The position numbers and the translations under genes are program-made. Below, in pieces: positions 40,595 through 56,386 of a DNA stretch of 59,321 nt. The DNA comes from Candidatus Poribacteria bacterium (GTDB lineage: Bacteria > Poribacteria > WGA-4E > WGA-3G). Under the pieces are notes generated by a model. It had not been told where the DNA came from. It did not search any database and saw only the letters and a list, made by a program, of their open reading frames with translations. Position 1 is the first letter of the stretch. Every line of letters begins with the position of its first letter. The stretch covers positions 1 through 59,321 of the forward strand of contig VYCT01000135.1 in assembly GCA_009843785.1 (NCBI GenBank), given 5' to 3'.

Positions 40595-40792
40595 ACCATT
40601 TGATCTTGTTGGTGATCTGTGGTATAATTCTATTTATCGTAAAACCAACAATTAAACAGACACTTTTCTTTAACAGAGGACGGTTCGTAGGGGGTTTTTG
40701 CTTGGGTGTTTCTTCAAGGTCCCCTCGTCCGTTTTCCAAAATGTGTCTTATTATTTTTAGAGGTCACTATAAATTGATTGATGGAGGGAATT

Positions 40793-41365
40793 ATGGCATC
40801 TGCTGCAGCACAAACTCGCCTAACCCCGGAAGAATATATCACTTTTGAGCGCAAGGCGCCCTTCAAAAACGAGTTTATCAAGGGAGAAATAGTTGCGATG
40901 TCTGGTGCCAGTCGCGCACACAATCGCATTACAGGGGATGTATTTAATGCGATTTCCAACCAATTAGTCGGTACCGAGTGTGAAGCTTTCATCGGCGATA
41001 TGCGCGTCAAGGCTGGCACGACAGCATCTTATTTCTACCCAGATGTAGTTGTTGCCTGTAATGAGCTCCGCTTTGAAGACGATGTTTTCGACACACTCCT
41101 CAACCCGATCATTGTTGTAGAGGTACTTTCACCTTCAACTGAAACCGACGACCAAGGTGAAAAATTCAATCGTTATCGGCAGCTGACATCCTTGCAAGAA
41201 TACATCCTTATTTCACAAGATAAAGTACGCGTTGAACATTATCTCCGCCGAGAAACGGAGTGGATTCCAACAGAATTCCGTGAACTTACAGACGTGCTAC
41301 CGCTTATTTCCATTGACTGCACATTGCCACTGCAAGACATCTATAGACGTGTTACATTGTCATAG
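40793..41365 (+). CDS. Uma2 family endonuclease (DUF820)
   Basis: EFIKGEIVAMSG, YPDVVV, VEVLSPST, LQEYILISQD; GGAGG RBS before MASAA. Confidence 0.9.
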   Translation: MASAAAQTRLTPEEYITFERKAPFKNEFIKGEIVAMSGASRAHNRITGDVFNAISNQLVGTECEAFIGDMRVKAGTTASYFYPDVVVACNELRFEDDVFDTLLNPIIVVEVLSPSTETDDQGEKFNRYRQLTSLQEYILISQDKVRVEHYLRRETEWIPTEFRELTDVLPLISIDCTLPLQDIYRRVTLS

Positions 41366-41500
41366 TAGCCCCGCCTAAAGGCAGGGGGCTTGTTAAGAAA
41401 CAAACCCTATCGGTCTACCGATAAGTTTCTCGTTTCACAGAGGTTGGTAACCCAACGCTCTCCACGATGGGCGCAAGCCGCCCGTAAGAGTATGTTTATC
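41340..41500 (-). ncRNA. Predicted TnpB omegaRNA/reRNA (scaffold overlapping tnpB 3' end, guide AAUGUAACACGUCUAUAG from flank)
   Basis: Inferred from established TnpB locus architecture and the right-end hairpin; 5' boundary is a guess. Confidence 0.5.
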
Positions 41501-42621
41501 GCAGCGTTGTGGTCTCGGTCTAAGGACGTGCCACAAAAACTACAATCAAAAGTGCGTATCGCCAGCGAAAGTTTCTTTGGCGACTTCTGACCGCAACTTG
41601 AGCATGTTTGCGAGGTGTTCTTGGGATTGACTTGGTGGAAATGGAAACCGTCTCTTTCGGCTATGTTTCCAGCCCACTCAAAGAACTTCCCCCAAGACGC
41701 GTCGGATATGCTCTTGCTGAGGTGTTTGTTCTGAACCATGTTGGAAATGCCCAAGTCTTCAGTGACAAGGACGTTATTTTTCTCATGATGGAAAAGTTTG
41801 AAAACCAATTTACCGATAAAGTCTTTGCGTTTGTTAGTCGTCTTTTCGTGGTGCAACGCAGTCGCATGCACGGCTTTCTGCCAACGCTGGCTACCTCTCT
41901 TTCGGCGTGCCATTGTCTGATTGTGCTTGTGCAGCAGTCCTTCTGCTTGACGATACCAGCAGGGGTTATCTTCCTTTTCGCCTTCAGAGGTCGTCAGATA
42001 ATGTGCCGTGCCAACGTCAACTGCAACAGCGTCTGTCGGTTCAACTTTTGGCGTATCGGGTATATCGCAAACGATATGGGCATACCAACCCGACGCTTTC
42101 TTGAGGAGTGTGACTTCCTTCGGATCACCTTGAAGTGGACGGTGCATGCGTATCTTGACTTCACCAAGTTTTGGCACTTTCAAGCGATTATGGCGAAAAT
42201 CCGTTTCTATTATCGGATTTTGCCGGACACGTTTGACGCCACCTGTCTCTTTATCCTTGACTTTGTGTTTTCGCAAGCACCACGTCAGAGAACGCACACG
42301 CGTTTTGTAGCGAGGGTAGCCCTTTTTCTCTGCCCCTTCTTTGCAACGTCTGCGGAACGCATCAAAGGCTTTGTCAACGCGCTTGAGGACAGAAACTTGG
42401 AAATCTTGAGGCACTTCACGGAAGTCGTCATATTTTTCACGCGCTGCCGTCAAAAGAGCCTGTTGCTCACCTTGAGAAACAAAACGTCCTTCTTCCTCGT
42501 AGGCATGCTTACGATTGTTGCGGGCAGAGTTCTGAAGTTCGCAAAGGTGATCTAACCAACTTAATAATGTTGTTTCCTGTGTTTTCGTAGGATACACAGG
42601 GTATTTAAAAGTGAGTTTCAT
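41407..42621 (-). CDS. tnpB: TnpB RNA-guided endonuclease
   Basis: N-terminal HTH (FKYPVYPT), RuvC-I AVDVG, RuvC-II VTEDL, Zn finger CSSC/CSFC, RuvC-III DRDHNAAIN; D-E-D intact. Confidence 0.95.
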   Translation of the reverse strand: MKLTFKYPVYPTKTQETTLLSWLDHLCELQNSARNNRKHAYEEEGRFVSQGEQQALLTAAREKYDDFREVPQDFQVSVLKRVDKAFDAFRRRCKEGAEKKGYPRYKTRVRSLTWCLRKHKVKDKETGGVKRVRQNPIIETDFRHNRLKVPKLGEVKIRMHRPLQGDPKEVTLLKKASGWYAHIVCDIPDTPKVEPTDAVAVDVGTAHYLTTSEGEKEDNPCWYRQAEGLLHKHNQTMARRKRGSQRWQKAVHATALHHEKTTNKRKDFIGKLVFKLFHHEKNNVLVTEDLGISNMVQNKHLSKSISDASWGKFFEWAGNIAERDGFHFHQVNPKNTSQTCSSCGQKSPKKLSLAIRTFDCSFCGTSLDRDHNAAINILLRAACAHRGERWVTNLCETRNLSVDR

Positions 42622-42746: not shown

Positions 42747-42830
42747 AGATATTTTGGCGTTCTGGTCCTTTCTAAGAGGGCGGATTTTCCTCCCCCACTA
42801 AAGTAGGGGGTTTCCAATCTGTGAACTTTG

Positions 42831-44444
42831 ATGAGAACCTTTGGAACACAAGGCCGCGTGTATCCGAGCCGACACTACGTCGTCCCACGCACCGAGGAGA
42901 AGACAGAATTCATCAAACGCGTCAAAGAAGGACGCTATATTGTCCTTTTCGCACCGCGACAGACTGGCAAGACAACCTTCTTTCGATTGGCACTTGACAC
43001 ACTTGCCACCGAAGAGCCCAGTTACTTCCCAATCCAATTGAATTTTGAGGAGTACGAAGACTATACCGCTTCCGATTTTTACGCTAACCTTTACGAAGAT
43101 ATTCGCGAAGAAATAGAAACCGTTTTTCAGAAGCGAGAAGAAGCTCCCCCCAAAGCACTCATCCAATTTTTAGAAAATACAGCACTAACCGACCACGTTT
43201 CAATGCGAAGGTTCTTTACACATTTCGATAGTTTCCTACCAGACCATAGCGTCATTCTCATCATTGACGAGTTTGACGCTATTCCGCGCGAGGCACTCAA
43301 AGGTTTTCTGCATTCACTCCGCCGTATCTATCTCACCGATGAGAATCGGTGCCCTCACAGCGTGAGTATCATCGGTGTCAAGAGTATTACACAACTCAGT
43401 TATGATCGCTCTGTCTCTCCTTTCAATATCCAAGATGAGTTCAACTTGCCGAATTTCACCTTTGAACAGGTGCGTGAGCTGCTTGGGCAGTATACCGCAG
43501 AGGTTGGTCAGACCTTTGAGGAGGAAGTCATTGCATCTATTCACAGGCAAACTGCAGGGCAACCTGTGCTTGTCAATCACTTCGCCGAGATACTCACAGA
43601 GACCTTGGAGATTCCGAAAACCGAGCCGATTACGATGGCGCATTTTGCAACCGCACACACGCAGCTCCTTGAAGAGGACAGCGTCAACCTTAGGCATCTG
43701 CTGACCAATATCCGCAGAGATAGACGGTTTGAAACACTCCTGATGAAAATTGCTTCTTATGACATCGGGGTACGCTTTACACGCCGCAATGAAATCATGA
43801 ATGAACTTGCGACGTATGGTGTCATTAAAGAAGGAGTTGATGGGATGTGTGAGATTCTCAATCCGATCTATCACTACTGCATCCTACAAGCATTTAAACC
43901 GCTCGTAAATGGGCTTGAGAATGAATATCTCCCCGCAGACAACGTTGCAGGCTTTCAAGATTATCTGGCACCCCATGGAGATATTGACATGGTGACGCTA
44001 CTCAATAACTTCAAGGATTTCATTGCGCGTGCGGGTTTCCGTGTTTTACAAGTGCCAGATACACCCCAAGAGTTTATTGGACAGCACTTACTATTGGCAT
44101 ATCTTGATCAGTTTGTCCAACTTGTTGGTGGTGTAATGTATCTTGAAGTCCAAACAGGACGCGGACGGATGGATCTGCTTATTTACCATAATCGGAAAAA
44201 ATATATCGTTGAAACGAAGATTTGGGAGGGTGATAGGCGTTACCAAGCAGGCAAAAAACAGTTAGCAGCATACCTAAAGTTGGAAGGCACAAGGCAAGGA
44301 TACTATATCGTATTTGATCATCGTCAGGAGCCAGAGCCGCGCGTAGAAACAGAGACGATAGAGGGGATAACGATTCGGAGTTATGTCATTCCTGTCATCC
44401 AAGAACGCCCTTCAGACGAACATCATAGCAGTAGATACAAATAA
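42831..44444 (+). CDS. AAA-like ATPase / PD-(D/E)xK protein, paralog 2
   Basis: APRQTGKTT, LIIDEFD, GRMDLLI...IVETK. Confidence 0.85.
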   Translation: MRTFGTQGRVYPSRHYVVPRTEEKTEFIKRVKEGRYIVLFAPRQTGKTTFFRLALDTLATEEPSYFPIQLNFEEYEDYTASDFYANLYEDIREEIETVFQKREEAPPKALIQFLENTALTDHVSMRRFFTHFDSFLPDHSVILIIDEFDAIPREALKGFLHSLRRIYLTDENRCPHSVSIIGVKSITQLSYDRSVSPFNIQDEFNLPNFTFEQVRELLGQYTAEVGQTFEEEVIASIHRQTAGQPVLVNHFAEILTETLEIPKTEPITMAHFATAHTQLLEEDSVNLRHLLTNIRRDRRFETLLMKIASYDIGVRFTRRNEIMNELATYGVIKEGVDGMCEILNPIYHYCILQAFKPLVNGLENEYLPADNVAGFQDYLAPHGDIDMVTLLNNFKDFIARAGFRVLQVPDTPQEFIGQHLLLAYLDQFVQLVGGVMYLEVQTGRGRMDLLIYHNRKKYIVETKIWEGDRRYQAGKKQLAAYLKLEGTRQGYYIVFDHRQEPEPRVETETIEGITIRSYVIPVIQERPSDEHHSSRYK

Positions 44445-44516: not shown

Positions 44517-45119
44517 GTGGCATTTAGCGATTTCAAGACAATCTCTGAAGTGCAGGAAAAATTCAGAATCACATACACCGAAGATGATTTTGTCAAAGCT
44601 GAACCATCATCTCCTTCAATCGAATTCCTGCAGGATTTTGAATTTACGCGAGAACATATTAATGTTTTTGCATCCGAAGCAGCACGTTGTGAGGCGATTA
44701 TCTTCCCGGTTCTAAAGGAAAGTTATAAAGCTTATGCCGATCGGTATGCCTTGTGGATAAAGCAATCCATCGCTTACGATGATGTCTTGAATGGGATACC
44801 AGACTACTTTATCTCTACCCGATCTGAATTAGGCAAAACCGTTGTTGGAAGTCCGTTGATACTCCTCGTTGAAGCAAAGAAAAACGACTTTGAGCAGGGG
44901 TGGGGTCAATGTCTGGCGGAGTTAGTCGCTGCCCAAAAGATAAACGATGATGCAGCTTTTCCCGTGTTCGGCATTGTTACTGATGGAACACTGTGGCAAT
45001 TCGGACGGCTTATCGGCGATACCTTCACCCAAAACAGAGCAGACTTTGCCTTAACCAATTTGCCTACACTTTTTGGGGCGGTTGATTCTGTGTTCAAAGC
45101 CGTAGATGATGTAAATTGA
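44517..45119 (+). CDS. Standalone PD-(D/E)xK protein resembling the HsdR N-terminal nuclease domain
   Basis: GIPDY...LVEAKK...GQC..EL...FGIVTDGTLWQF. Confidence 0.65.
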   Translation: MAFSDFKTISEVQEKFRITYTEDDFVKAEPSSPSIEFLQDFEFTREHINVFASEAARCEAIIFPVLKESYKAYADRYALWIKQSIAYDDVLNGIPDYFISTRSELGKTVVGSPLILLVEAKKNDFEQGWGQCLAELVAAQKINDDAAFPVFGIVTDGTLWQFGRLIGDTFTQNRADFALTNLPTLFGAVDSVFKAVDDVN

Positions 45120-45400: not shown

Positions 45401-45811
45401 CTATAACGATGAAATATTTCCGATTTGGGTAGATGAGGTAATTTTCGTAGGCTGCTCCCCCAACACAACAAGACAAGCACGCAACATATTTTCAACCTCT
45501 TGTCGTGTATCCTCACGCAATGGTCCTGAAAGTGCCGCACGATACAGGTTCACCGCTCGACTCGGATCCCCTGCCTTTTCATAACACGATGCCGCACTAA
45601 TTCGATGTATCGCACCCTCCAATTCACGACCGAGGACATCAAGCATCGGCGGAATATACTCTTCATAGTTGGCAGCGGATAACCAAAGCGGTTGCGCCGT
45701 TTCCGTCATACCAACTTCCCACAATGCTTGTGCTTCGGAAAGAATTTTTGATTTCCGGTGCATTGTCGCTTTGAGTGTCTTTGTGTAAGGTTTGGTTTTT
45801 GGGTTAGGCAT
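45401..45811 (-). CDS. Hypothetical helical (TPR-like) protein
   Basis: SAASCYEKAGDPSRAVNLYRAAL resembles a TPR helix pair; start uncertain. Confidence 0.55.
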   Translation of the reverse strand: MPNPKTKPYTKTLKATMHRKSKILSEAQALWEVGMTETAQPLWLSAANYEEYIPPMLDVLGRELEGAIHRISAASCYEKAGDPSRAVNLYRAALSGPLREDTRQEVENMLRACLVVLGEQPTKITSSTQIGNISSL

Positions 45812-45922
45812 GTACTTCCTTTTTTTTGATTTTTCTAATCGTCCAACCATCATATTGGTAGGCGCGACTTACAACCGCGCCCACCGTGTATTTCAAGGAA
45901 AATTGGAATTATATTTTGGATG

Positions 45923-47392
45923 TTACATATAATAACGGAATGAAGGATGCGGTTTACGGTTTGGCCCCACTTCCGCCATGATGCCACCAACTCTCCGAGA
46001 AAAAAAGAGAGTCACCGGATGGGCACTACTCATGCTTGCTGTATTCCAATTCATACGGGCGAGCCCGAGAATATCTGAGGCAACTTGATGCATGTCAACA
46101 TCATCGTCACTTACAAGTTTTACAGGAGCCGGAATGTGAGGGCCGGGATATGTCCGCCACTCAGGCATATAACCTGTGGTGAATAGATATGTGGTTGTCT
46201 TATTCACTGTGCAGAGAGTGCCTCTTCTCGGTGGATATGATCCATAAGTCAAGAGTCGAAACTGCGTCGGCATAATGTTAATTAATTCGACTATTGGAAT
46301 ATCGCGAAAACCGTGCCGAAATCCTTCTTTTTCTGCTTCGTCAAATCTTGATGTTTTATGAAGTACAACACGTTGTGGATTTCCACCTATACCATCCCGA
46401 TACTCTTGAAGAATTTGGTCAGCAAGTTTAACGGACTGTTCTACAGTAAGATGGACATTACGTTTCTGATTTGCATCCCAAGGAATAGCTTCTCCACGGA
46501 GTGCAAATCCTTCCCCGCGACTCGAAAATGCTTGTGCCAAACTTGAATAGACAAGGTGTTTGCTCGGGGTTCGCAAGTGATGAAAACTGATACCGACAAA
46601 GCAGGTTTCTGGTCCGTCTGCCTTAAACCGCCACGGTATTCCTCCACCTTTATAATAGAGCCCCACGCTCATGTTCCACGCTCGCGTTGCTGGATCTTGA
46701 TTGGTATCTTGATCTTCAAACAAATTACGAGTACCAATCTGAATTGGCATGTGAAATTTCATTGTTCGAGCCTTCAAAGCCCGCCTGAAATCCCGATTCA
46801 GCAGATCATCCTCGTTTTCTTCTATGTCCTGAAACAAAGATAGTTGTCCTTGTTCACGATTAGCTTGTCGTATCTTGATAAGTCTACGCTGCCTTGAAGT
46901 CAGAGATTTTGAGATACTCCAGCATGTTTGAACCACATCATTAGGCAAGCAACATAAGACAATATCGGGACGAATATTCGTGTTATCAGCTAATCTTTCA
47001 ACACCATCTGCATACATATCCAACACCGCTTCAAAGCGTGATTTTGGATCTTTCTTAAGGAAGGCTTCAAGCATACCGTTATTAATTTCTGCTTGCCATT
47101 GCCGGTCAAATATAAGTGAGGTATGGAAAGCCTCGTTAAACCCGGGAAAATCAAGATATTGCGTAGAATCTTTGATGTCGGAGGGAATAGGTGCGCGACA
47201 CTGATCGAGCCATTGTTGTGCTTTCTGTAGCATATCAGCGTTTCCAACGAGTCCAACGCGCATCTCCTTTTTCCGCGTAGCACCGAAACGGAGGTCAAAG
47301 GGGCCTGCCTCCGCAAGCCCTATTTTTGGATCTCTGAAGGTACCCGGCGAACCGAGCTCAATGCTCGGTATTGGTAATTGTGTAAGTGCCAT
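45923..47392 (-). CDS. Short prokaryotic Argonaute (MID-PIWI, catalytically inactive)
   Basis: DPKIGL..AGPFD start, MID motif FRRALK...PIQ...WN..VGLYYKGGGIPW, PIWI CFVGISF and VVLHKTS (no DEDX), TYPGPHIPAP, LARMNWN, C-terminal FRYYM; ATG 1 nt after partner stop. Confidence 0.92.
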   Translation of the reverse strand: MALTQLPIPSIELGSPGTFRDPKIGLAEAGPFDLRFGATRKKEMRVGLVGNADMLQKAQQWLDQCRAPIPSDIKDSTQYLDFPGFNEAFHTSLIFDRQWQAEINNGMLEAFLKKDPKSRFEAVLDMYADGVERLADNTNIRPDIVLCCLPNDVVQTCWSISKSLTSRQRRLIKIRQANREQGQLSLFQDIEENEDDLLNRDFRRALKARTMKFHMPIQIGTRNLFEDQDTNQDPATRAWNMSVGLYYKGGGIPWRFKADGPETCFVGISFHHLRTPSKHLVYSSLAQAFSSRGEGFALRGEAIPWDANQKRNVHLTVEQSVKLADQILQEYRDGIGGNPQRVVLHKTSRFDEAEKEGFRHGFRDIPIVELINIMPTQFRLLTYGSYPPRRGTLCTVNKTTTYLFTTGYMPEWRTYPGPHIPAPVKLVSDDDVDMHQVASDILGLARMNWNTASMSSAHPVTLFFSRRVGGIMAEVGPNRKPHPSFRYYM

Positions 47393-47393
47393 A

Positions 47394-50159
47394 TCAATCA
47401 ACATCTTCTATCTTCTCCAATTGCGAAACTTCTTGTGAGAATTCTGACTCCAACTGTGCTAATCGGTTTGTCTCAAGTGTCTCAACCTGTTTTATGCCCC
47501 ACGCATCATCTCCAAAATCAGGAGCAACTGTTGCCGATAAGTTTGATCTGATACGAATTTGATTGCCATCCTGCCTGTGAATTTTGTCTAGTGGAATCAT
47601 ACCGGTTTGAGTCCCAGTTGAATCCGTATTAAGCACAAAGATACTATGATTTTCCCGCGAAAGCACCCACGTCCAGAACACAAGATCGTTGTGAACAACG
47701 TTATTGTAGTCTCGTCCCTCACGCTTTGTGGAAAGTCTATTAACTACCTTTCCTTCCAGAAGATCTGATCTACCATCGGTTGTGAAAACATAACCTGGCA
47801 GCATAACAAGCGTCCAAACATCGCCAAATCGTTCAAACCGAAACCGAAAAGACTTGTGCTCCCAATAATTTTTTATCTTTTTGACTACCGTCCGAGTTGC
47901 ACGACGCAAACGTGCTTGGTACTTAATCTTCCGCGGCCCTTCTTGAGTCCGCGCGAAATAGGCACGTTTACGATACTTATCTATCCAGAGCCCTTGTGCT
48001 TCAAGATGTCTATAGAAATATTCATTAAGGATCCACACAAAACGCTGTTCCCCATGAGCATCGGTGAATTCTTCAACAGTCATCTTTCCTATATCGCTGG
48101 TCTTGATCACGGCATAGAGCGGATTAGCGGATATTGAAAGATCGTGGAAGGTAAAAAGTTGCCCACTATCAAGTATAAATGGCGGTAACCAATCTGCGCC
48201 TGTTTTTTCCCACACCTCCTTTGCCGTCCGCGCTTCAGTGCCGGCGTACCAAACAATGTCAGGGAGACTGACAACCTCAAGAAGATTGCTGGCATAGCGA
48301 GTGAAATTATCGCTACTGGAGGCAGTTCTTGTAATCGTATCCGCAACTTCCGGGCGGCGGGAAATTGTTATTTCAAAAGCTGTATTGTCATCAATGGGAC
48401 CAAAGTTCACCTCGTTTTTGTTTTCCTCGCTTTCTCTCCATACATCCGATAGCCCAGAACCCGCCTTCTCCATTTCTTCGGCACCATAAAACATGTCCGC
48501 TACAACTGGGTTACGATAGCCGCGAATGCCTCGTGTCCCTTTTTTGATTTCTGTTTCAAACGCGTTTTTTATCTCCTCTTGAGATGTACCTATCATCTGA
48601 TCTATTACATCCTCAACCAATCCCCCCGGGTTGCGTACACGAATGTAGGTTTCCGCAATCTCTATCACGATTGGTTCGTCTTTCTCGTAATCACGGTGAA
48701 CGAGCGCGTTGACAACTATTTCCCGTAAGGCATTCGGAGGATACGGATACACGGGTTTTGAGTGTCGTCCTTCCTTCAAAAGAAAAGACCGATTGACGCG
48801 AGAGAGCAATTCATATATCTCTTCAAGCTGCATCCACAGGTTCCCTTCAATTACCTGTTCTATCTTCTCTCCAACCGATTCAGCATCATCCGAAACATCA
48901 AAAATATTTTCAATCCACTCCGGATCTCCTTTTAAGCTAACGACGACTTGCGCGGTTTGGATATGGTTCTGTGGTACATCGGCAAAGAGTAAGTAACCTC
49001 CAACTGTAGGAAAAATATCTCCTTCTTTTTGACGTGTGGCGAGATCTCGATCACACAATAGTTGAAAAAACCAATTGTTATCCCTAATGGTCGGCACTCG
49101 GATACCTGTCCTGTCGCAGTACTGTAAAAGCCGAACTCTCATCGGCGGCCAGTCAAAATCATCAAGACTGGATTCGGTGAGCACCTCTAAATCATAAGGG
49201 AGCTCTGTTAATGCTTCAGGAACCGCTGTAATTTGTGTTTGATGATAATCCGGTTCTTGTTTACGAGCATGTTGCCATAGAGCACCCATCACTTCGTCGA
49301 ATCCATCAATAGAGACGACCTGAAGGTTTTCCTGGATTTCTTCAGAAAGTTCATGCACTAAGTGAGTTAAACTGTCGGGGCGTTCTCCCTTATAATTCCG
49401 TGTGCACCAATAGATTCCATTTCGATAGTTGTCTACTGCCTCCGCATGATTGATGAGAAGATGTTTCATGACAGAAGTTTCCGCTCCCCGATACCCTATG
49501 ACAATCAGGGGATGATCTCTCAAAAGAGGTAGTAATCTTGAAACAAGATTTGTATCAAGTTCTTCATCTACTTCAGTAATGGTATTTTTGTCCGTGTAAT
49601 GTTCAACAGAACCATGCAGGTAAACAATTTGCGGATATTGTGGACTTGTTGACAATTTTGTGTAGTCGGATTTTGTCTGGATGATCTGCGGATGGTGAAG
49701 TTGCTTATTGTCCTTGCATACCTTTGGCAAAATGGGGTCAAAATTTGTGGTGAGTACGGTACGGATACACTTCCTGGCCATAAGTTCTGCAATATGTTCA
49801 TATCCGCTGCTCGGTTCGACCTGTGTATTCAGCATTTCCAAAAAGAAATCTTTTCGTATTTGGCGGGGTTGAAGAATATTTTCCACGGCATCAGGATAGT
49901 TATCCGCTTGTTCCCCATCTTCATGATACCACTTTTGCATTTTTAACCACGGGTACCAGTCGCTACGCCGAACGCGTGGGTCTTCAGGATCCAAGCCATT
50001 GTCGAGACAGTATCCCCATTTAGCGATCTTTTCTACCATGTCATGCGCGAGAGGAATGCCGGATTTCACGGAAGCACCGGCACCAAGTAGGAAGATCGGA
50101 TCGGGCCCCCGTATAAAGAGCGAGCGTAAGCGTCCAATAGTTGCTGTTTGAAGTGCCAA
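47394..50159 (-). CDS. SIR2 - GHKL-type ATPase (HATPase_c_4 / 'RecG C-terminal') - APAZ fusion, partner of short pAgo
   Basis: SIR2 aa ~1-295 (LLGAGAS, TTNFD, YLHGS, VIGYRG); aa ~320-600 YP..ALREIVVNALVHRDY, NPGG, RNP, EKAGSG; aa ~620-880 APAZ-like (SNLLEV, KRAYF, YWEH, PGYVFTTDG, YNNVVHNDLVFW). Confidence 0.85.
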   Translation of the reverse strand: MALQTATIGRLRSLFIRGPDPIFLLGAGASVKSGIPLAHDMVEKIAKWGYCLDNGLDPEDPRVRRSDWYPWLKMQKWYHEDGEQADNYPDAVENILQPRQIRKDFFLEMLNTQVEPSSGYEHIAELMARKCIRTVLTTNFDPILPKVCKDNKQLHHPQIIQTKSDYTKLSTSPQYPQIVYLHGSVEHYTDKNTITEVDEELDTNLVSRLLPLLRDHPLIVIGYRGAETSVMKHLLINHAEAVDNYRNGIYWCTRNYKGERPDSLTHLVHELSEEIQENLQVVSIDGFDEVMGALWQHARKQEPDYHQTQITAVPEALTELPYDLEVLTESSLDDFDWPPMRVRLLQYCDRTGIRVPTIRDNNWFFQLLCDRDLATRQKEGDIFPTVGGYLLFADVPQNHIQTAQVVVSLKGDPEWIENIFDVSDDAESVGEKIEQVIEGNLWMQLEEIYELLSRVNRSFLLKEGRHSKPVYPYPPNALREIVVNALVHRDYEKDEPIVIEIAETYIRVRNPGGLVEDVIDQMIGTSQEEIKNAFETEIKKGTRGIRGYRNPVVADMFYGAEEMEKAGSGLSDVWRESEENKNEVNFGPIDDNTAFEITISRRPEVADTITRTASSSDNFTRYASNLLEVVSLPDIVWYAGTEARTAKEVWEKTGADWLPPFILDSGQLFTFHDLSISANPLYAVIKTSDIGKMTVEEFTDAHGEQRFVWILNEYFYRHLEAQGLWIDKYRKRAYFARTQEGPRKIKYQARLRRATRTVVKKIKNYWEHKSFRFRFERFGDVWTLVMLPGYVFTTDGRSDLLEGKVVNRLSTKREGRDYNNVVHNDLVFWTWVLSRENHSIFVLNTDSTGTQTGMIPLDKIHRQDGNQIRIRSNLSATVAPDFGDDAWGIKQVETLETNRLAQLESEFSQEVSQLEKIEDVD

Positions 50160-50272
50160 AATGCTGTCCTCTTAGATTATTCCTGATAGATATTGTGGTT
50201 GTAAACCCCTATCCTGGTAGGTTTTGGAGGCTTGTAACAACTCGCCCGTCTATAAACCAACGGTTCCTAAGG

Positions 50273-50301
50273 AGTGTAACATTAATTTGTGAGCAGGTCA
50301 A
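50273..50301 (-). promoter_or_regulatory. Sigma70-type promoter for the pAgo operon
   Basis: TTGACC-17 nt-TACACT with TG extension, about 115 nt upstream of the TTG start. Confidence 0.55.
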
Positions 50302-50490
50302 GTTTAAATAACAAGGGGCAGAACCATTCAGTTGTCGGTTGGCTCTCGCTGCTATCGGAGCAGTATAGATACGGAAATTGCTTCTATAGCGCGGTTTGGA
50401 ACATTTACAGATTGTCGTCCTTAAAGGAGAACTGAATGCCTCTGATACCCTCTTATCAACTTAATTCCTGTAATCCGCAACTCAGGCAAC

Positions 50491-53400
50491 CTACCACAAA
50501 ACCGAATCAATCTCACCCATAACCGCAAGCGTCTCCGCAACAGCCACCAAAATCGCACGATACCGCCGCACATCCGTATGACTTAACACCTCGCCGCGCC
50601 GATCCTTCAACCACTTCTCACACACCTGATACGCCCCAATCTCATATTCCCACACCTCAACGGACACATCCGTGAAATACTGGGTCGGATTAATCCAAAC
50701 CCGTCCCTCCAAATAGCGCGCTTTTTCGACAATACCGTCCCCCTCACCCTCAAACCGATGCACCGCCGGAACCCCTCTTCCTGTAGGAGCGACTTGTAGT
50801 CGCGATCCATCTTTCAACAGATGCCAATCCATCAACCGCTGCCCCAACGCCGAGAGTGTACGGAATTGCGCAATATCTTGTGGTAACGGGATGCGTGGAA
50901 AATCGTATTTTAGGAACTCATAATACCGCTCACGATAGGTCGGACTATACAAGATTGCATAGATATAGGCGAGGATCGCCTCTGGTGAGACACCTTCGGG
51001 TAGGTTAAAGGGTTCGGTTTGCGGGAGTTCCAACGCTTCTGAGAGCGCGGTGAGAAAGGCAGGTTTAAGATTGAGCGACCGTTCTGTTGAGAGTCCCAAT
51101 TCTTCAGAATTCGGATACAAGTAGAGCGGAAACACATGTGCAGTGGGTTCACCTCTATTTGAAATATAACTTTTTTCACTGATTTGATTAGTTACCAAAG
51201 CATGTTGCCATATCGGACTCTTGATACCACGATGAACACAAAGGGCGAGATTTTCCTTCCGCATGTGACGCATGATTTCAGGGCGCGGTCGTCCATGGAA
51301 TCCAGATGACTGACCTGTGTAATATGTCCACCGTGGATCAAATGGACGATAATGAATAGACTGGACGTGCTGCTCAACATCCGGATGATTACGGATATCT
51401 GCTTGGGCGCGGTGAATTTTCCAATCTTGGCTATCCTTTGGTAATTGATATTTCCCCCGAGCTTCATCTACAGAAAGGGAAATGAAATCGGTTACGGTCT
51501 CGCGCAGTTTTTCCTCTGTCCAATGCAGTGTGAATTTATCCCGTCCGGTAACAATGCCAACCGAGTCTACCTTAAAGATATCGGTAATTATCCAGCCTGC
51601 TTCATACTCTGATCTCTGTTCGATTGCCTGTGGCACAAAAAGATAATAGGGTGATGTCGGTTGTAGTTCACTCCATTCTGTAGTTTGAACATCTGTTTCT
51701 GAAAGAGTACTATATTTTTCCGCACGTGGTCCCCACATAGCAGCGTAATAGACTTTTGCTGGAATAGAATTGTCGCGTTGCTTGACACATAGCAAGATGG
51801 AAACTCCTTGTATGATGTCAAAGACATTTTCGTCATTTTCCGCTTCAGGAACAACCTCCGTTACTCTGCTGCTACCGTGTAAATTGAGCAGGTAGATAGT
51901 GTTAAAACTATCAAGCAAACTTTGCCGCATGCCACGAAAAGTAGGTCCGTCAAGGAAACTATTATTGACAATATAACCGATAACACCTTCTCCATTTTTA
52001 TCAATGCGCCACTGTGCCCACCGAATAAATTTCACATAATCTGATTGCAGCACTTTTGAGTTTTTATCACCAAGTGGTTCTCCATCTACCTGCCTGTAAT
52101 CCTCAATGAGTTCACCGATGAAAGTTAATTTTCTACCCTCGCGGCTTGGATTGGCAGAATCCTGTGGATAAGGCGGATTACCAAGGATAACAAGCAGCGG
52201 TTCGTCCCGTTTTACTGACAATGCTGCATTCGCCTCGTCGGAGATAAATCCCGCAAAGGGGATAGAAGGCTGCATTTCGTCCGGTTGTTCCAAAGTATTC
52301 GTCAGATAGATACCGAGGCGTTCATCAGCACGCCACCCTTGCGCTTGTAGGAACAGACTCAACTTCAGATGCGCGATCGTATACGGCGCGACGAGCAGTT
52401 CAAACCCGAAAATCCGCCTGACCAGCTGCGCGTTGACATACTGCATCCACTCCGCCGCGCCGTAGGTCTCGGCTACATATTCTCGGACGTGATCCAGCAC
52501 TGACAACAAAAAACCACCCGTCCCTGTCGCAGGGTCAAGAATAAGTGTATCGTCATCGGCGAGACCGTCCGGTCTGTTCAACGCTGTTTTCAGGAGACTA
52601 TCCACCGACCTAACGATATAAGAGATAACCTGTGGCGGTGTATAATAAACACCGCGATCGACGCGTCGCTGCGGATCGTATTCCGCGAGGAAAGTCTCGT
52701 AGAAATGGATCACCGGATCTTCAAGATGATTTCTCGCAGCAAACGCCGTGCGGAGCATCTCTGTCGGGACGTTGCGGAGAAGCACTGCGATGTCGTCCAG
52801 AATATAAGTGACGTTCGTCTCCAGTGTCGGGGAGGCGACGTGATGAAAGAGTTGGACGAGAAACGGATTTGAGCGTGGAAGTGCATCGGTGGCAGTGTGT
52901 CGTGAGAAGTGGGTCGCGTTTGGGAGCGTGCAGCGTGCGGCGAACAACCCGTAAGCGAGGGTTTGGGCGTACATATCCGCAAAATCGTCCGGAGTGAGCG
53001 TAGAGATGAGCAACTCCTTGAACGCCGAGAACATCCCATAAATCTCGCTATTTTCATCGGTGAGCGTCGTCGCAATCTGCGTCTGGAGTTCCCGTGTCCG
53101 TCTGGCGAGGTATCTTGCGAGCACCTCTGGCGAGGTGATTTCGACCTGTCCAGCGTCCAGAAACCGCTCCAGTAGCCGCTTTAAATTTTCAGGCGAATCC
53201 TCAATGTTTGCTGTTGCGCGCGATATCCCGTCCGTATACAACCGAAAATCGACGAAATTGGTAAGAACAAAGTTATCAAGGTTTTCGATGAAGCGAGCGT
53301 TCTGTGCTTTCGCGTGCCCAGTGAGATTGTCAAGGTCTCTACCGTAGGCTTCCGCTTCAATATAACCGATAGGCAGTACCCCATCCATTGCAATAAAATC

Positions 53401-53592
53401 GGGTCTCCCGATCTGCTCCAGTTGTCTCGGTTCTTGTGTTAATTGGACGGTATCTCTGCCCAGGTCAACGCATAGTTCTTCAAGGAAGGCTTGGAGGTGT
53501 GGGTATAGCGAGAGTTCTGGGGTCGCCTCGGTGCTGGTTTGTGTGCGGTGGATGTTTTGTAGATAACGGTCGCAGTGTGTTTGGAAGTTCAT
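50491..53592 (-). CDS. Single-chain restriction-modification enzyme (Type IIG-like: nuclease - N6-adenine MTase - Type ISP-like specificity domain, no helicase)
   Basis: GRPDF...IEAE, GVYYTP, motif I ILDPATGTGGFL, motif IV GNPPY, YRPFD, DFPRIP, IGAYQVCEKWLKDR. Confidence 0.88.
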   Translation of the reverse strand: MNFQTHCDRYLQNIHRTQTSTEATPELSLYPHLQAFLEELCVDLGRDTVQLTQEPRQLEQIGRPDFIAMDGVLPIGYIEAEAYGRDLDNLTGHAKAQNARFIENLDNFVLTNFVDFRLYTDGISRATANIEDSPENLKRLLERFLDAGQVEITSPEVLARYLARRTRELQTQIATTLTDENSEIYGMFSAFKELLISTLTPDDFADMYAQTLAYGLFAARCTLPNATHFSRHTATDALPRSNPFLVQLFHHVASPTLETNVTYILDDIAVLLRNVPTEMLRTAFAARNHLEDPVIHFYETFLAEYDPQRRVDRGVYYTPPQVISYIVRSVDSLLKTALNRPDGLADDDTLILDPATGTGGFLLSVLDHVREYVAETYGAAEWMQYVNAQLVRRIFGFELLVAPYTIAHLKLSLFLQAQGWRADERLGIYLTNTLEQPDEMQPSIPFAGFISDEANAALSVKRDEPLLVILGNPPYPQDSANPSREGRKLTFIGELIEDYRQVDGEPLGDKNSKVLQSDYVKFIRWAQWRIDKNGEGVIGYIVNNSFLDGPTFRGMRQSLLDSFNTIYLLNLHGSSRVTEVVPEAENDENVFDIIQGVSILLCVKQRDNSIPAKVYYAAMWGPRAEKYSTLSETDVQTTEWSELQPTSPYYLFVPQAIEQRSEYEAGWIITDIFKVDSVGIVTGRDKFTLHWTEEKLRETVTDFISLSVDEARGKYQLPKDSQDWKIHRAQADIRNHPDVEQHVQSIHYRPFDPRWTYYTGQSSGFHGRPRPEIMRHMRKENLALCVHRGIKSPIWQHALVTNQISEKSYISNRGEPTAHVFPLYLYPNSEELGLSTERSLNLKPAFLTALSEALELPQTEPFNLPEGVSPEAILAYIYAILYSPTYRERYYEFLKYDFPRIPLPQDIAQFRTLSALGQRLMDWHLLKDGSRLQVAPTGRGVPAVHRFEGEGDGIVEKARYLEGRVWINPTQYFTDVSVEVWEYEIGAYQVCEKWLKDRRGEVLSHTDVRRYRAILVAVAETLAVMGEIDSVLW

Positions 53593-53597
53593 ATTTA

Positions 53598-54443
53598 TTA
53601 GAGCCAATACGGAAATCCAGCAGACTCCTGAGACGCAGGCGGTCGGAGCAATTCAAATTTTCCATTCATTGATTTACGGGTTAAGACGATAATCCCACCA
53701 TCGGCGTATGTGCCTTTTGTGACATGATGGGACTCAAATAGCAAAACGTCCTCGATACCGTCATTGTTAAAGTCAGCCCGCACCATCTCCTTTAACATTT
53801 GCCCCATACCGAACCCCTCAACATTCAAAACATTTTGACTTTTTTCGGTAACGACGAGTTCTTGATTATCAATCTTTTGCTGGTATGTCGTCTCTAAATC
53901 TCTGTCGGCATCCCAACTCGATTTCGATGCCAGATTTTCGCGAAACATCTCGAAAGGGAGCAATTCTAAGTTGAGGACCCCCACTTTGGCATCTGAGATA
54001 AAACTTTTTGTGGGCGCACTCGCCTTCTCAAGCGCGTTGAGCAATCCACAGGGATGCTTGAAAAAAAATGACATCTTGTGGTCAAAATTACTACTCGGGT
54101 AGTAGTCACGCTGAAGTGCTGAATCATATTCTCTACAGGTTCGCACATGAACCTTGTCGTCCCTCGTTTTCGTGAGCGTTACGCCGTCAAGATGATCATT
54201 CTCACCCAGATGGATGGGCAGGTCCCGAAGGGTGTCAATCTCATCTTTAGCAATGGATTCCACTATCGTACCATCTGCAAACCGTATACTTTCAATAAGT
54301 TGAAAAGTAACATTAGGCTCCTGCTGCGTTTTATTCGGTTTCTGCTGATCTGCTGCCAAAGACTGCTGGACATGGACATTTTGAGTGCTTAAGATAAATG
54401 CCAGTAAACAGACAATGCTGCCAAAAAACTTGAAAACTGTCAT
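53598..54443 (-). CDS. Hypothetical exported protein
   Basis: N-terminal signal peptide; ADFNNDGIEDVLL Ca-binding-like motif. Confidence 0.65.
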   Translation of the reverse strand: MTVFKFFGSIVCLLAFILSTQNVHVQQSLAADQQKPNKTQQEPNVTFQLIESIRFADGTIVESIAKDEIDTLRDLPIHLGENDHLDGVTLTKTRDDKVHVRTCREYDSALQRDYYPSSNFDHKMSFFFKHPCGLLNALEKASAPTKSFISDAKVGVLNLELLPFEMFRENLASKSSWDADRDLETTYQQKIDNQELVVTEKSQNVLNVEGFGMGQMLKEMVRADFNNDGIEDVLLFESHHVTKGTYADGGIIVLTRKSMNGKFELLRPPASQESAGFPYWL

Positions 54444-54702: not shown

Positions 54703-54731
54703 TTGACAATCAAAGCCTCAGATGGTATCCT
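54703..54731 (+). promoter_or_regulatory. Sigma70-type promoter for AAA paralog 3
   Basis: TTGACA-17 nt-TATCCT with TG extension. Confidence 0.55.
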
Positions 54732-54781
54732 TATCTATAAATGGTATCATAAGAATCTTAGCACTCCGGTTTGGAGAAAAG

Positions 54782-56386
54782 ATGAGACGCTTCGGAACGC
54801 AAGGTCCCGTTCATCCAGAGAAAAACTATGTCGTCAGCCGCGCGACTGAACTTGCCGATTTCGTCATGCGTGTCAAAGAGGGGCGTTACATCGTTATCTT
54901 CGCACCGCGGCAGACCGGCAAGACGACTTTCTTCCAACGCGCCTTAGACGTATTTGCAGACGAAGAGCCTGCGTACTTTCCAATCCCGTTGAATTTTGAG
55001 GAATATGAAGGCTGCACGCCATCGGTTTTTTACAGTTATCTCTACGGGGATATCCTTGAGGAGATAGAAAATATTTTTGCGCGGCGCGGAGAGGTACTTT
55101 CTGAAGCATTGACAGAATTTTTGGAGAATGCAGAGATAACCGACCATCTCTCGATGGGAAGATTCTTTAGAAACTTTTCCAAGTTTTTGGGTGATCGGCG
55201 CGTCATCCTTATCATAGACGAGTTTGATGGCATCCCGAAGGAAGCCGTGAGAGGCTTTCTACATTCACTGCGTCGTATCTACGTCTCAAATCCTATCTCT
55301 CGCTGTCCACACAGTGTCGGCATTGTTGGAGTCAAAAGTATTACGCAGCTGAACTACGACAGGTCGATCTCCCCGTTCAATATCCAAGATGAGTTCAACT
55401 TACCAAACTTCACACTTGAACAGGTACAAGAACTCCTTGGACAATATGTGGAAGAAGTTGGTCAACAGTTTGCACCAGAGGTGATTGAATCGATTCATAA
55501 GCAGACCGCCGGACAACCTGTTCTTGTCAACCGATTCGCGCAGATTCTCACGGAGGAGTTAGATATTCCGAAGACCGAACCGATTACAATGGCACACTTT
55601 TCAACGGCACATACGCAACTCCTCCGTGGACGGAATACCAACATTGAACACCTGACAACCAATATCCGCAGGAATCCACGCTTTGAAAGCGTTCTGATGC
55701 GGATTATGGCGCGTGATGAAGGCGTAGACTTCAATCTCGACGATGACATTATCAGTGAACTTGCCACTTATGGCGTTATTAAAGAAGGGACTGATGGTAT
55801 GTGTGAGATTCTCAATCCGATTTATCTCTACCGGATTATGAGGACGTTCAAGCCACTCATAAACGGGTTAGAGCAAGAATACTTCTCAGAGGATACCAGC
55901 GAAGAACTTCATGAGTATCTCACATCTACGGGGCAGATTGAGATGGAGGCGTTACTGGATAACTTTCGAGATTTCATAGCACGAGCAGGTTTCAGAATTT
56001 TGCAGGTGCCCGATACGCCACAAGAATCGGTAGCACGACACCTCCTACTCGCCTATCTTGACGAGTTTGTTAGACGTATCGGGGGTGTTATGCATATAGA
56101 AGTCCAAACCGGTCGTGGCAGGATGGACATCCTCATCACGCACAATCAGCGAAAATACATTATCGAGACAAAAATTTGGCGAGGCGATAGTCGCTACCAA
56201 GCAGGCAAAAAGCAGTTAGCAGCATACCTAAAGTTGGAAGGCACAACGCAAGGATACTATATAGTATTTGACCATCGTCAAGAGCCAGAGGCACGTGTAG
56301 AGACGGAGACCATCGACGATGTAACTGTTCGGAGTTATGTGATTCCTGTTGTGCAAGAACGACCTTCAGATGTTGATTTGTCTTGA
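54782..56386 (+). CDS. AAA-like ATPase / PD-(D/E)xK protein, paralog 3
   Basis: APRQTGKTT, LIIDEFD, GRMDILI...IIETK; GGAG RBS before MRRFGT. Confidence 0.85.
   Translation: MRRFGTQGPVHPEKNYVVSRATELADFVMRVKEGRYIVIFAPRQTGKTTFFQRALDVFADEEPAYFPIPLNFEEYEGCTPSVFYSYLYGDILEEIENIFARRGEVLSEALTEFLENAEITDHLSMGRFFRNFSKFLGDRRVILIIDEFDGIPKEAVRGFLHSLRRIYVSNPISRCPHSVGIVGVKSITQLNYDRSISPFNIQDEFNLPNFTLEQVQELLGQYVEEVGQQFAPEVIESIHKQTAGQPVLVNRFAQILTEELDIPKTEPITMAHFSTAHTQLLRGRNTNIEHLTTNIRRNPRFESVLMRIMARDEGVDFNLDDDIISELATYGVIKEGTDGMCEILNPIYLYRIMRTFKPLINGLEQEYFSEDTSEELHEYLTSTGQIEMEALLDNFRDFIARAGFRILQVPDTPQESVARHLLLAYLDEFVRRIGGVMHIEVQTGRGRMDILITHNQRKYIIETKIWRGDSRYQAGKKQLAAYLKLEGTTQGYYIVFDHRQEPEARVETETIDDVTVRSYVIPVVQERPSDVDLS

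Follow-up and report, generated by a model that had tools for sequence, protein, structure and literature searches.

The locus at positions 45923–50159 of the window (the whole stretch of 59,321 nucleotides of Candidatus Poribacteria DNA analysed here) carries a two-gene short-Argonaute operon, the partner protein of which consists of a SIR2 domain, a GHKL-fold module and an APAZ domain. It is probable, though far from certain, that the operon represents an intact abortive defence system of clade S2B, in which the GHKL module would serve as an ATP-dependent assembly scaffold for the SIR2 NADase. The SIR2-GHKL-APAZ architecture is not new, since full-length PADLOC models exist and surveys list it. 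In surveys of prokaryotic Argonautes (pAgos) the type is found as "RecG/DHS-like-APAZ" or as a SIR2 subgroup of S2B, and DHS-like or RecG/DHS-like APAZ proteins are assigned to clade S2B; these entries agree with what the initial annotation had stated. The window partner is a member of this type; the PADLOC models and the survey class are catalogue entries, in which a function is not reported. A literature search found no experiment on, or characterisation of, the SIR2-GHKL-APAZ sub-type of short pAgos.

Organisation of the locus

Both genes are intact and situated on the minus strand, and they are joined by TGA-T-ATG (...GAT TGA T ATG GCA...), in agreement with the two-gene operon described initially. 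The partner gene (47394..50159, 921 aa) starts with a TTG codon at 50159, with an AAGAGGA ribosome-binding site 7 nt upstream, and ends with a TGA stop at 47394–47396; it encodes, in this order, the SIR2 domain, a linker sub-domain, the GHKL-fold module, the APAZ domain and an acidic tail. The pAgo reading frame extends over 45923..47404. Because of the junction sequence, its start is most likely at 47392, which yields a gene of 45923..47392 (including the stop codon) for a MID-PIWI protein of 489 aa; the alignment with the PADLOC pAgo model begins at residue 5 of the reading frame, and an in-frame ATG at 47404 may be an alternative start. The operon had also been thought to possess its own promoter. 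The upstream intergenic region (331 nt, 50160..50490, minus strand) contains two promoter-like hexamer pairs, at 50301..50273 and 50205..50176; however, the nine promoter-like sites that a scan found in the region are at chance level (8.9 expected from shuffled sequences), and the best one, 50205..50176, would place the transcript start within the ribosome-binding site, so that this claim was not upheld.

The partner family comprises 622 matches at 90% clustering; among the 50%-identity representatives listed, 47 of 150 were full-length. Full-length relatives have 914–950 aa. In all 14 full-length loci compared, a short pAgo (33–91% identity) follows the partner directly; these loci span at least seven phylum-level groups and include Poribacteria, Rhodothermales, Pontibacter, Sphingobium, Shimia, Sphingopyxis, an actinobacterium, Verrucomicrobiota, Blastocatellia and Terriglobia. 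Flanking genes were common only to two close relatives. Some relatives contain an additional N-terminal domain of effector type (PNP_UDP_1, Metallophos or Trypsin_2), and in these SIR2 is perhaps not the sole output. For residue conservation, 49 diverse representatives with 22–63% identity to the window partner were used.

Assignment to clade S2B

The full-length PADLOC model PDLC02402 (Aga_SIR2-PNTD1-PNTD2) matched the partner with 1054.9 bits over residues 8–860, and PDLC02418 (Aga_SIR2-Kinase-PNTD1-PNTD2) with 738.5 bits over residues 155–860. The APAZ domain, at about residues 620–860 (47580..48302, minus strand), was recognised by solved APAZ proteins, as had been supposed for the C-terminus. 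The best was HNH-APAZ (9om4_A, against residues 620–841; E 3.5e-18 with the single sequence, 8e-43 with the family profile); DREN-APAZ (9jsb_D) and DUF4365-APAZ (9qbp_A) matched as well, TIR-APAZ was reached by profile, and PADLOC Aga_REase-PNTD1-PNTD2 models matched residues 621–845. The protein ends with an acidic tail at about residues 880–921 (47397..47522, minus strand; conserved QLESEFSQ...EDVD in the alignment), which is typical of S2A/S2B partners according to the pAgo survey.

The pAgo was matched end to end by PADLOC pAgo_I (PDLC02376, 494 bits). Of the solved short pAgos, that of SPARHA scored best (9om4_B, 4.6e-72), followed by 9qbp_B (6.2e-47), 8fex_B (8.6e-41) and that of SPARSA (8in8_C, 3.9e-20), which bears out the expected S2B-like rather than S1 affiliation. 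Judged from its sequence, the MID-PIWI protein is catalytically dead and has a conserved 5'-phosphate pocket; K207, Q218, K248, S269, H345 and K346 are invariant in 15/15 sequences. APAZ would probably join the partner to the pAgo as a heterodimer, as in the solved relatives.

The middle module

The segment between SIR2 and APAZ had been estimated at about 280 aa; it was found to be about 310 aa long (about residues 310–620). Its first part is a small alpha/beta linker sub-domain (about residues 316–400; 48960..49214, minus strand) with the motif PTxGGxLLF. An AF2 model of residues 316–404 had a pLDDT of 95.7, and the best structural match of this sub-domain alone reaches only Z 2.8. It occurs also in free-standing AlbA_2-HATPase_c_4 proteins and can be aligned with 3lmm and the proteins L017, L041 and L024.

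A GHKL (Bergerat) fold follows at about residues 401–610 (48330..48959, minus strand), as indicated by Pfam, AF2, VIA, Foldseek and hhalign. Pfam HATPase_c_4 was detected at residues 495–598 (28.8 bits, cut-off 26), and together with SIR2_2 and the solved APAZ proteins this supports the three-part composition originally proposed. The AF2 model of the middle module (pLDDT 91.6) had 3lmm as top match in VIA (Z 21.4 over 252 residues; Foldseek E 2.7e-12). The other 49 VIA matches listed were all GHKL domains (histidine-kinase CA, CheA P4, PDK/BCK or SpoIIAB-type; model residues 106–315), and among the structural matches listed only GHKL ATP-binding domains covered residues 401–610; with Z 5.4–8.2, these matches of the predicted model are middling. 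The fold check thus agrees with the GHKL assignment. DIP2311 of Corynebacterium diphtheriae (3lmm) and free-standing SLFN_AlbA_2 + HATPase_c_4 proteins contain, after AlbA_2, a part homologous to the window module 310–620, with the common motifs PTxAGxLLF, ALRExxxNALVHRDY, PG, RNP and GxG; the module is indeed one usually located behind Schlafen/AlbA_2 domains. In those proteins AlbA_2 and a C-terminal HTH occupy the places which SIR2 and APAZ have in the window partner.

As read from the sequence, this PF13749-family module contains the Mg/gamma-phosphate motif ExxxN and the GxG lid motif. Its motifs are an N-box E480xxxN484AxxH488 (E480/N484 in ALREIVVNALVHRD), a G1-like N510-P-G512-G, R549-N550 and a G2 G567-S-G569; NPGG (510–513), EKAGSG (564–569) and the residue numbers all agree with those given initially. 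In the hhalign alignment with HATPase_c domains of the same genome (E 4.3e-5, probability only 69%), N484 coincides with the N-box Asn, and G567 and G569 coincide with the glycines of G2. This genome also encodes two small HATPase_c proteins (frames of 145 and 152 aa; L090, L091) that likewise have an ExxxNAxxH N-box. The canonical G1-box Asp, which in GHKL proteins contacts adenine, is absent, a point that the initial annotation had not mentioned; hhalign puts N510 at its position, where the 49 relatives have N (26), S (19), T (3) or A (1).

A member of the same family offers a precedent for a possible function of this module. In the SLFN-pAgo RzAgo ("Schlatpase" supradomain), a PF13749 GHKL domain is likewise situated between the effector and the Argonaute sensing part, with an ExxxN motif of its own (E314/N318, compared with E480/N484 in the window partner). 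According to the 2026 preprint (Kuzmenko et al., bioRxiv 10.64898/2026.05.29.728809), this domain selectively binds ATP, whose gamma-phosphate is held together with Mg by E314 and N318, and hydrolyses it; ATP binding drives tetramerisation via the GHKL domain and lid, which activates the effector. What links it to the window partner is membership of one Pfam family and an ExxxN motif of identical spacing. RzAgo is a long-B pAgo that consists of one chain and uses a Schlafen tRNase as effector, whereas the window system has a SIR2 effector and a separate short pAgo recruited via APAZ; therefore the role of the GHKL domain may not be transferable. The word SIR2 does not occur in the preprint text. 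The RzAgo precedent supports the initial suggestion that the putative NADase may assemble in an ATP-dependent manner.

The module could instead be a nucleotide-independent spacer or oligomerisation scaffold, i.e., a passive insert in a system with SPARSA-type NAD+ depletion. This appears rather unlikely: the missing G1-box Asp in 49/49 relatives and the middling Z values (5.4–8.2) of the GHKL matches would fit, but seven motif residues (E480, N484, H488, G512, N550, G567 and G569) never vary, even in relatives with only 22% overall identity, a degree of conservation not easily reconciled with a passive role, and ATP binding and hydrolysis are known from RzAgo, a member of this Pfam family. This conservation is, from the sequences compared, that of the whole PF13749 family and not specific evidence for catalysis here.

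Less likely still is a different role, either sensing a ligand (another nucleotide or a nucleic acid) or phosphorylating a protein as a kinase-type enzyme; in both cases the system would gain a second input or output. The ExxxNAxxH N-box, shared with the two small proteins mentioned, is an anti-sigma-factor kinase pattern, and SpoIIAB-type GHKL kinases phosphorylate a protein; the PADLOC label of the domain is "Kinase", and base preference could be altered where N, S or T stands in place of the adenine-contacting Asp. However, a comparison of relatives' neighbourhoods found no phospho-acceptor partner conserved beside the operon, and the RzAgo domain is ATP-selective and works as an assembly switch.

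The SIR2 domain and the proposed mode of action

The SIR2 domain of NADase type (about residues 19–305; 49245..50105, minus strand; GAGAS 26–30) was detected by Pfam SIR2_2 at residues 134–257 (E 1e-9). Residues 22–300 align with the SIR2 domain of SPARSA (8in8_B, 21–300) with E 1.1e-11 by single sequence and 6.3e-35 by profile, with ThsA far behind in the profile comparison (4.5e-5); N139 is aligned with N142 of 8in8_B. The site is intact, as had been claimed: the catalytic N139 (in TTNFD) and H182 (in YLHGS) are invariant in 49/49 relatives, as are G26, A27, G28, S30, G34, F140 and G183 and, in the middle module, E480, N484, G512, G567 and G569. That SIR2 is no bulk NADase here but binds NAD in a regulatory role or acts as an ADP-ribosyltransferase, the harmful effect arising elsewhere, is quite improbable: the extra N-terminal domains of some relatives (PNP, phosphoesterase or protease) could suggest it, but the domain is most similar to that of SPARSA, its catalytic Asn and His are invariant, and Pfam found no further effector-type domain in the window partner.

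SPARSA (Geobacter, 8in8 and related entries) has the same SIR2 sub-type and APAZ, its short pAgo is likewise inactive, and its genes also form a two-gene operon; as in SPARSA, NAD+ depletion is expected to be the output. The SPARSA partner (~587 aa) has SIR2 directly followed by APAZ, whereas in the window partner a 310-aa linker and GHKL module lies between, and the two systems differ in the clade of their pAgo and APAZ. A simultaneous drain of NAD+ and ATP, also suggested initially, is unsupported, since GHKL domains are slow switch ATPases and not depleting enzymes. SPARHA (short pAgo with HNH-APAZ, 9om4; Nat Commun 2025, PMC12738770), of clade S2B, is the closest solved pAgo and APAZ pair; its effector is an HNH nuclease, without SIR2 or GHKL module, and according to its report it is activated when guide RNA and target DNA are present, and forms filaments.

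In the favoured scheme with the GHKL module as scaffold, the guide-loaded pAgo would recognise invader DNA, and higher-order assembly would follow, as in SPARSA, SPARTA, SPARDA and SPARHA. The SIR2 domains would thereby be brought together, NAD+ hydrolysis switched on and the infected cell stopped. By analogy with RzAgo, the GHKL module would bind ATP and provide an ATP-dependent dimer or tetramer interface needed for the active SIR2 assembly. With ATP at its usual level in the cell, the module would be ATP-loaded, and it may thus be an assembly scaffold which also ties the NADase to the energy state of the cell, rather than a second independent trigger.

Gene organisation and neighbourhood

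The system comprises two intact ORFs at 45923–50159 of the window, on the minus strand. The partner gene (47394..50159, minus strand) encodes 921 aa and starts with TTG, the ribosome-binding site AAGAGGA being located seven bases upstream. It meets the pAgo gene in the junction GAT TGA, T, ATG GCA (TGA-T-ATG), so that 47392 is the most likely pAgo start, yielding a protein of 489 aa. A start at the in-frame ATG at 47404 is possible as well, but the PADLOC pAgo model begins only at residue 5 of the pAgo ORF. The initial annotation had credited the operon with its own promoter. A promoter and terminator scan of the region found 9 promoter-like sites against 8.9 expected, i.e., chance level, and this claim was therefore dropped; the top-scoring site would put the transcript start within the ribosome-binding site of the partner gene. 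The operon is separated by 331 nt from the upstream gene on the same strand, with which it could conceivably be co-transcribed.

This upstream gene (50491–53607, minus strand) encodes a restriction-methyltransferase of type ISP / type IIG with 1038 aa (Pfam Type_ISP_C, 1.2e-87, and N6_Mtase; PADLOC REase_MTase_IIG); a type ISP gene also adjoins the system in the close relative at locus L001. Two genes of the same domain composition, an AAA_35 ATPase with a C-terminal PD-(D/E)XK nuclease-like region, bracket the pAgo/restriction cluster (42828–44444 and 54722–56386, both plus strand), and with this pair and the other neighbours the region looks like a defence island. A 200-aa protein (44517–45119, plus strand) matched the PADLOC model of a CRISPR-associated PD_DExK protein (E 4e-45) and no Pfam family; its identity in L001 is 98.5%. 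Beside the island are an IS605 OrfB/TnpB-like gene (41407–42621, minus strand) and a gene for a Uma2-family endonuclease (40778–41365, plus strand). A TPR protein of 150 aa is encoded 70 nt downstream of pAgo (45401–45853, minus strand); since this gene is kept beside pAgo in no relatives other than the closest two (L001 and L002), the protein probably does not belong to the system.

Domains of the partner protein

Pfam recognised SIR2_2 (residues 134–257) and HATPase_c_4 (PF13749; residues 495–598, 28.8 bits, above the curated cut-off of 26, and 30 bits in the scan of the organism's own genome) in the partner, and NCBIfam assigned no family to the whole protein or to its middle module. PADLOC matched the partner to PDLC02402, "Aga_SIR2-PNTD1-PNTD2" (1054.9 bits, residues 8–860), and to PDLC02418, "Aga_SIR2-Kinase-PNTD1-PNTD2" (738.5 bits). 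Residues 22–300 matched the SIR2 domain of SPARSA, 8in8_B (E 1.1e-11 with the single sequence, 6.3e-35 with a family profile), N139 being aligned with N142. Residues 620–841 matched HNH-APAZ (3.5e-18 and 8e-43, respectively), and the profile also reached TIR-APAZ. The protein ends in an acidic tail, which is conserved among the relatives and has been reported as typical of S2A and S2B partners. ORF translation and alignments reproduced all residue numbers of the initial annotation.

The partner resembles SPARSA in its SIR2 domain, which is alignable to 8in8_B and retains the catalytic Asn and His, whereas about 310 residues (310–620), forming two sub-domains, separate SIR2 from APAZ, which are joined directly in SPARSA.

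The middle module

The module at about 310–620 is homologous to the part following AlbA_2 in free-standing SLFN_AlbA_2 + HATPase_c_4 proteins. In tblastn, partner residues 309–620 matched positions 6001–6813 of locus L017, by computation residues 141–406 of a 406-aa AlbA_2-HATPase_c_4 ORF (5581–6801), and the motifs PTxAGxLLF, ALRExxxNALVHRDY, PG, RNP and GxG are common to the module and the free-standing proteins. It shares the linker sub-domain and the PF13749 unit with the Schlatpase supradomain (SLFN_AlbA_2 + PF13749), but no PF04326 match was found in the partner, where SIR2 occupies the place held by AlbA_2 in the free-standing proteins of L017 and L041. Free-standing modules of this type are common in the organism, since its own genome contained seven further PF13749 matches in open frames of 304–599 aa (L093–L099). 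No extra-long Schlafen-pAgo was seen in this genome scan. Two elusimicrobial loci considered as Schlafen-pAgos, L040 (5230–9582) and L053 (5437–8325), turned out to consist of two or three tandem ORFs of 450–480 aa, at least some of which are similar to the GHKL module (identities of 36% and 27%, from query residue 370 or 387 to 654).

The assignment to GHKL required structural and profile-profile comparison, because searches of the sequences of solved structures with the module gave only the uncharacterised protein 3lmm (DIP2311 of Corynebacterium diphtheriae; partner residues 433–519, 2.8e-15 with the family profile) and no canonical GHKL protein. An AlphaFold2 model of residues 296–625, calculated on an alignment of 58 rows, had a pLDDT of 91.6 and a pTM of 0.87. 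Foldseek placed 3lmm first (E 2.7e-12), followed by the ATP-binding domains of histidine kinases and PDK (E about 4e-4 to 7e-3). The independent search with VIA returned 3lmm with Z 21.4 over 252 residues, and among the matches listed, all other 49 were GHKL domains (histidine-kinase CA, CheA P4, PDK/BCK and SpoIIAB-type domains) with Z 5.4–8.2 over 78–132 aligned residues, spanning model residues 106–315, i.e., 401–610 of the protein. Although these Z values are middling, the list is uniform; residues 401–610 are predicted to form a Bergerat alpha/beta sandwich.

The first sub-domain (316–404) folded confidently when modelled alone (pLDDT 95.7). A structural search across representatives gave nothing with Z of at least 5, the best value being 2.8, and many of the weak matches were winged-helix regulators, all with Z below 3; the sub-domain is left without a fold assignment and is not put forward as a new fold. 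Complex prediction with two copies of 296–625 (alignment A3) and two ATP molecules scored 0.00, the mark being 0.42, which is no answer and weighs neither for nor against binding.

Comparison by hhalign with ten HATPase_c domains from the organism's own genome (E 4.3e-5, probability 69%) placed N484 on the N-box Asn of the organism's histidine kinases, G512 on the first glycine of the G1 box, N510 on the G1 Asp, and G567 and G569 on the glycines of the G2 box. The N-box ExxxN, which provides the general base and the Mg ligand, is present as E480 and N484 in all 49 aligned relatives; so are G567 and G569 of the G2 box in the ATP lid, whose counterparts in alignment A6 are invariant G2 glycines. 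The adenine-binding Asp of the G1 box DxGxG is absent: position 510 is N in 26, S in 19, T in three and A in one of the 49 sequences, never acidic, and only G512 is invariant. As the free-standing PF13749 proteins likewise show S-P-G at the G1 box, this is a trait of the whole family; it argues for caution with regard to ATP binding, yet the family includes an ATP-binding member.

The Argonaute protein and assignment to a clade

With 489 aa, the pAgo consists of MID and PIWI domains only, as do short pAgos in general (about 450–510 aa). Its alignments with solved short pAgos cover almost the full length (residues 9–488 with 11–483 of 9qbp_B, and 9–489 with 10–507 of 8qlo_B), and it matched the whole PADLOC model pAgo_I (494 bits; ORF residues 5–493 on model positions 1–455 of 455). 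Pfam gave nothing significant for this protein, and NCBIfam only a weak Argonaute match below threshold.

Among solved structures, the HNH-APAZ system 9om4 (SPARHA) ranked first (E 4.6e-72, 246 bits), followed by DUF4365/DREN systems (about 1e-46, 163 bits) and SPARTA (about 1e-40, 140–145 bits); of the ten short-pAgo sequences that matched, the one from SPARSA, 8in8_C, came last (E 3.9e-20, 75 bits, partial, 201–473). The APAZ family profile behaved similarly (HNH 8e-43, DUF4365 1.8e-25, TIR 1.2e-6). By this ranking of solved relatives, used in place of a tree, pAgo and APAZ fall among the DUF4365/HNH/Mrr systems rather than with S1 (SPARSA) or S2A (SPARTA), and the expectation that the pAgo would be S2B-like rather than S1 was borne out; the pAgo of SPARSA, by contrast, belongs to clade S1. 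The sensor half (pAgo and APAZ) is thus of S2B type and the SIR2 domain of the pAgo-associated SPARSA type, a combination which fits the exchange of effectors between short-pAgo clades suggested in the preprint by Prostova et al.

K207, Q218 and K248 are invariant in 15 pAgo sequences and are read here as the probable 5'-phosphate pocket. The first and third catalytic Asp motifs of PIWI (GxDV and RDG) are presumably represented by GISF and HKTS. Both are kept in 15 of 15 pAgo relatives and match the inactive pAgo of SPARHA. From this alignment among relatives, loss of the catalytic DEDX tetrad is inferred.

Conservation and distribution

Searches with the partner returned 622 matches at 90% clustering. 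Among the 120 listed, most had 874–954 aa (two were shorter, 616 and 647 aa), identities were 57–100%, and all carried PF13749, PF13289 or both. At the level of 50%-identity representatives, 3438 were found at E of at most 1e-3 and 165 at 1e-30 or below; of 150 representatives listed, 47 gave a single match that began no later than residue 41 and reached at least residue 833, and another ten of comparable length matched in two stretches. Alignment A2 was built from 49 representatives, 22–63% identical to the window protein; it omits the N-terminally extended P0122–P0124, P0153, P0165 and P0142, further P0128, P0159 and P0197, as well as every representative that was shorter or partial. Invariant in the 49 sequences were G26, A27, G28, S30, G34, N139, F140, H182 and G183 of SIR2, among them the catalytic N139 and H182; G439, N456, E480, N484, H488, G512, N550, G567 and G569 of the module; and N625, R756, P788 and N819 of APAZ.

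Full-length relatives in species-representative genomes came from Candidatus Poribacteria (63–93% identical), Rhodothermales, Pontibacter, Sphingobium, Shimia and Sphingopyxis, and also from an actinobacterium, Verrucomicrobiota, Blastocatellia and Terriglobia; those of Pontibacter, Sphingobium, Shimia and Sphingopyxis are from cultured strains and lend themselves better to work at the bench. A short pAgo gene was located directly downstream of the partner in 14 of 14 full-length loci, and flanking genes were common only to the two closest relatives; thus, the conserved unit is the gene pair, as described for short pAgo systems generally by Koopal et al. (2022).

Some relatives deviate from this architecture. 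P0123, P0124 and P0153 possess an additional domain ahead of SIR2, namely Metallophos (1267 aa), PNP_UDP_1 (1221 aa) and Trypsin_2 (1096 aa), respectively, and P0122 and P0165 have N-terminal extensions without an assigned domain. The PNP_UDP_1 domain is possibly of the ATP-nucleosidase type of Rousset et al. P0163 and P0183 (662 and 585 aa) appear to contain the GHKL module and APAZ without SIR2, the former beginning with Met and 60 unrelated residues, and P0148, P0167, P0194, P0199 and P0204 (576–691 aa) appear to contain SIR2 and GHKL without APAZ. Either such split or reduced forms are real, or the gene calls are truncated.

Relation to known systems and possible function

The system is a member of a catalogued and widespread S2B sub-type of short pAgos. 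The observation reported in the initial annotation stands, and its anatomy and clade largely so; the novelty attributed to the architecture is overstated, the sub-type being already catalogued and widespread. "RecG/DHS-like" is listed among APAZ-fused domains in two 2023 preprints, "a subgroup of SIR2 effectors" in S2B is mentioned by Prostova et al., and "additional uncharacterized effectors" in the SPARHA paper; the family may figure in the supplementary tables accompanying the pAgo surveys and Koopal et al. (2022). The literature searched, mostly without subscription journals and supplements, yielded no experiment or paper on an S2B SIR2-GHKL-APAZ system, nothing on the function of HATPase_c_4 or COG2865, and no source of the PADLOC names PNTD1 and PNTD2.

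The closest precedent is the work of Kuzmenko et al. (bioRxiv, May 2026). According to this preprint, extra-long long-B pAgos carry SLFN_AlbA_2 and a PF13749 GHKL domain; that of RzAgo is selective for ATP, which it binds with sub-millimolar affinity and hydrolyses. Its residues E314 and N318 contact the gamma-phosphate and Mg as ligands, and the E314A variant still binds ATP but has lost the ability to hydrolyse it. In the presence of ATP or ATP-gamma-S, RzAgo is driven to form tetramers, mainly via the GHKL domain and its lid, which builds the active Schlafen nuclease. SIR2 is not mentioned in the preprint, and RzAgo is likened to the present module through the shared PF13749 family.

As read from sequence, the parts are those of a short-pAgo abortive-defence system. 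By analogy with solved relatives, pAgo loaded with a small RNA would recognise invader DNA, the target-bound complexes would then assemble, and the assembled SIR2 domains would hydrolyse NAD+. The effectors of SPARSA, SPARTA, SPARDA and SPARHA are switched on by target-induced oligomerisation, and no ATPase domain was reported for them in the literature found. The precedent of RzAgo and the invariance of the ExxxN and GxG motifs make it probable that the GHKL module of the S2B sub-type binds ATP; that it serves as an ATP-dependent assembly interface is the best single guess, held with about even confidence. Cells contain millimolar ATP, and the module is therefore more likely to be a loaded scaffold tying activity to the energy state than an independent trigger. 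The further suggestion that the system also drains ATP by way of the GHKL domain found no support. Relatives with an N-terminal PNP_UDP_1 domain might do so through that domain instead, given the ATP nucleosidases of PNP type that Rousset et al. describe from short pAgo systems.

Tentatively, the PF13749 module could be regarded as an ATP-dependent assembly switch between sensor and effector, SIR2 firing only when target-bound pAgo complexes also dimerise or tetramerise via ATP-loaded GHKL domains. The S2B sub-type sets a conserved domain of ATP-binding type between the NADase and the Argonaute-binding part, and the example in the window, from a Poribacteria-like genome, is both intact and compact; how GHKL affects an NADase effector is a directly testable question with a clear precedent. 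If the domain works as in RzAgo, two unrelated lineages of Argonautes would have ATP-dependent assembly as a common layer of control, and the depletion of NAD+ would be tied to the ATP level of the cell. If the assembly switch exists, the system would act as a coincidence detector for invader DNA and the energy state of the cell, self-limiting as NAD+ and ATP fall, and the GHKL unit, recurring behind SIR2, Schlafen and other effectors, would serve prokaryotic immunity as a portable "oligomerise on ATP" adaptor.
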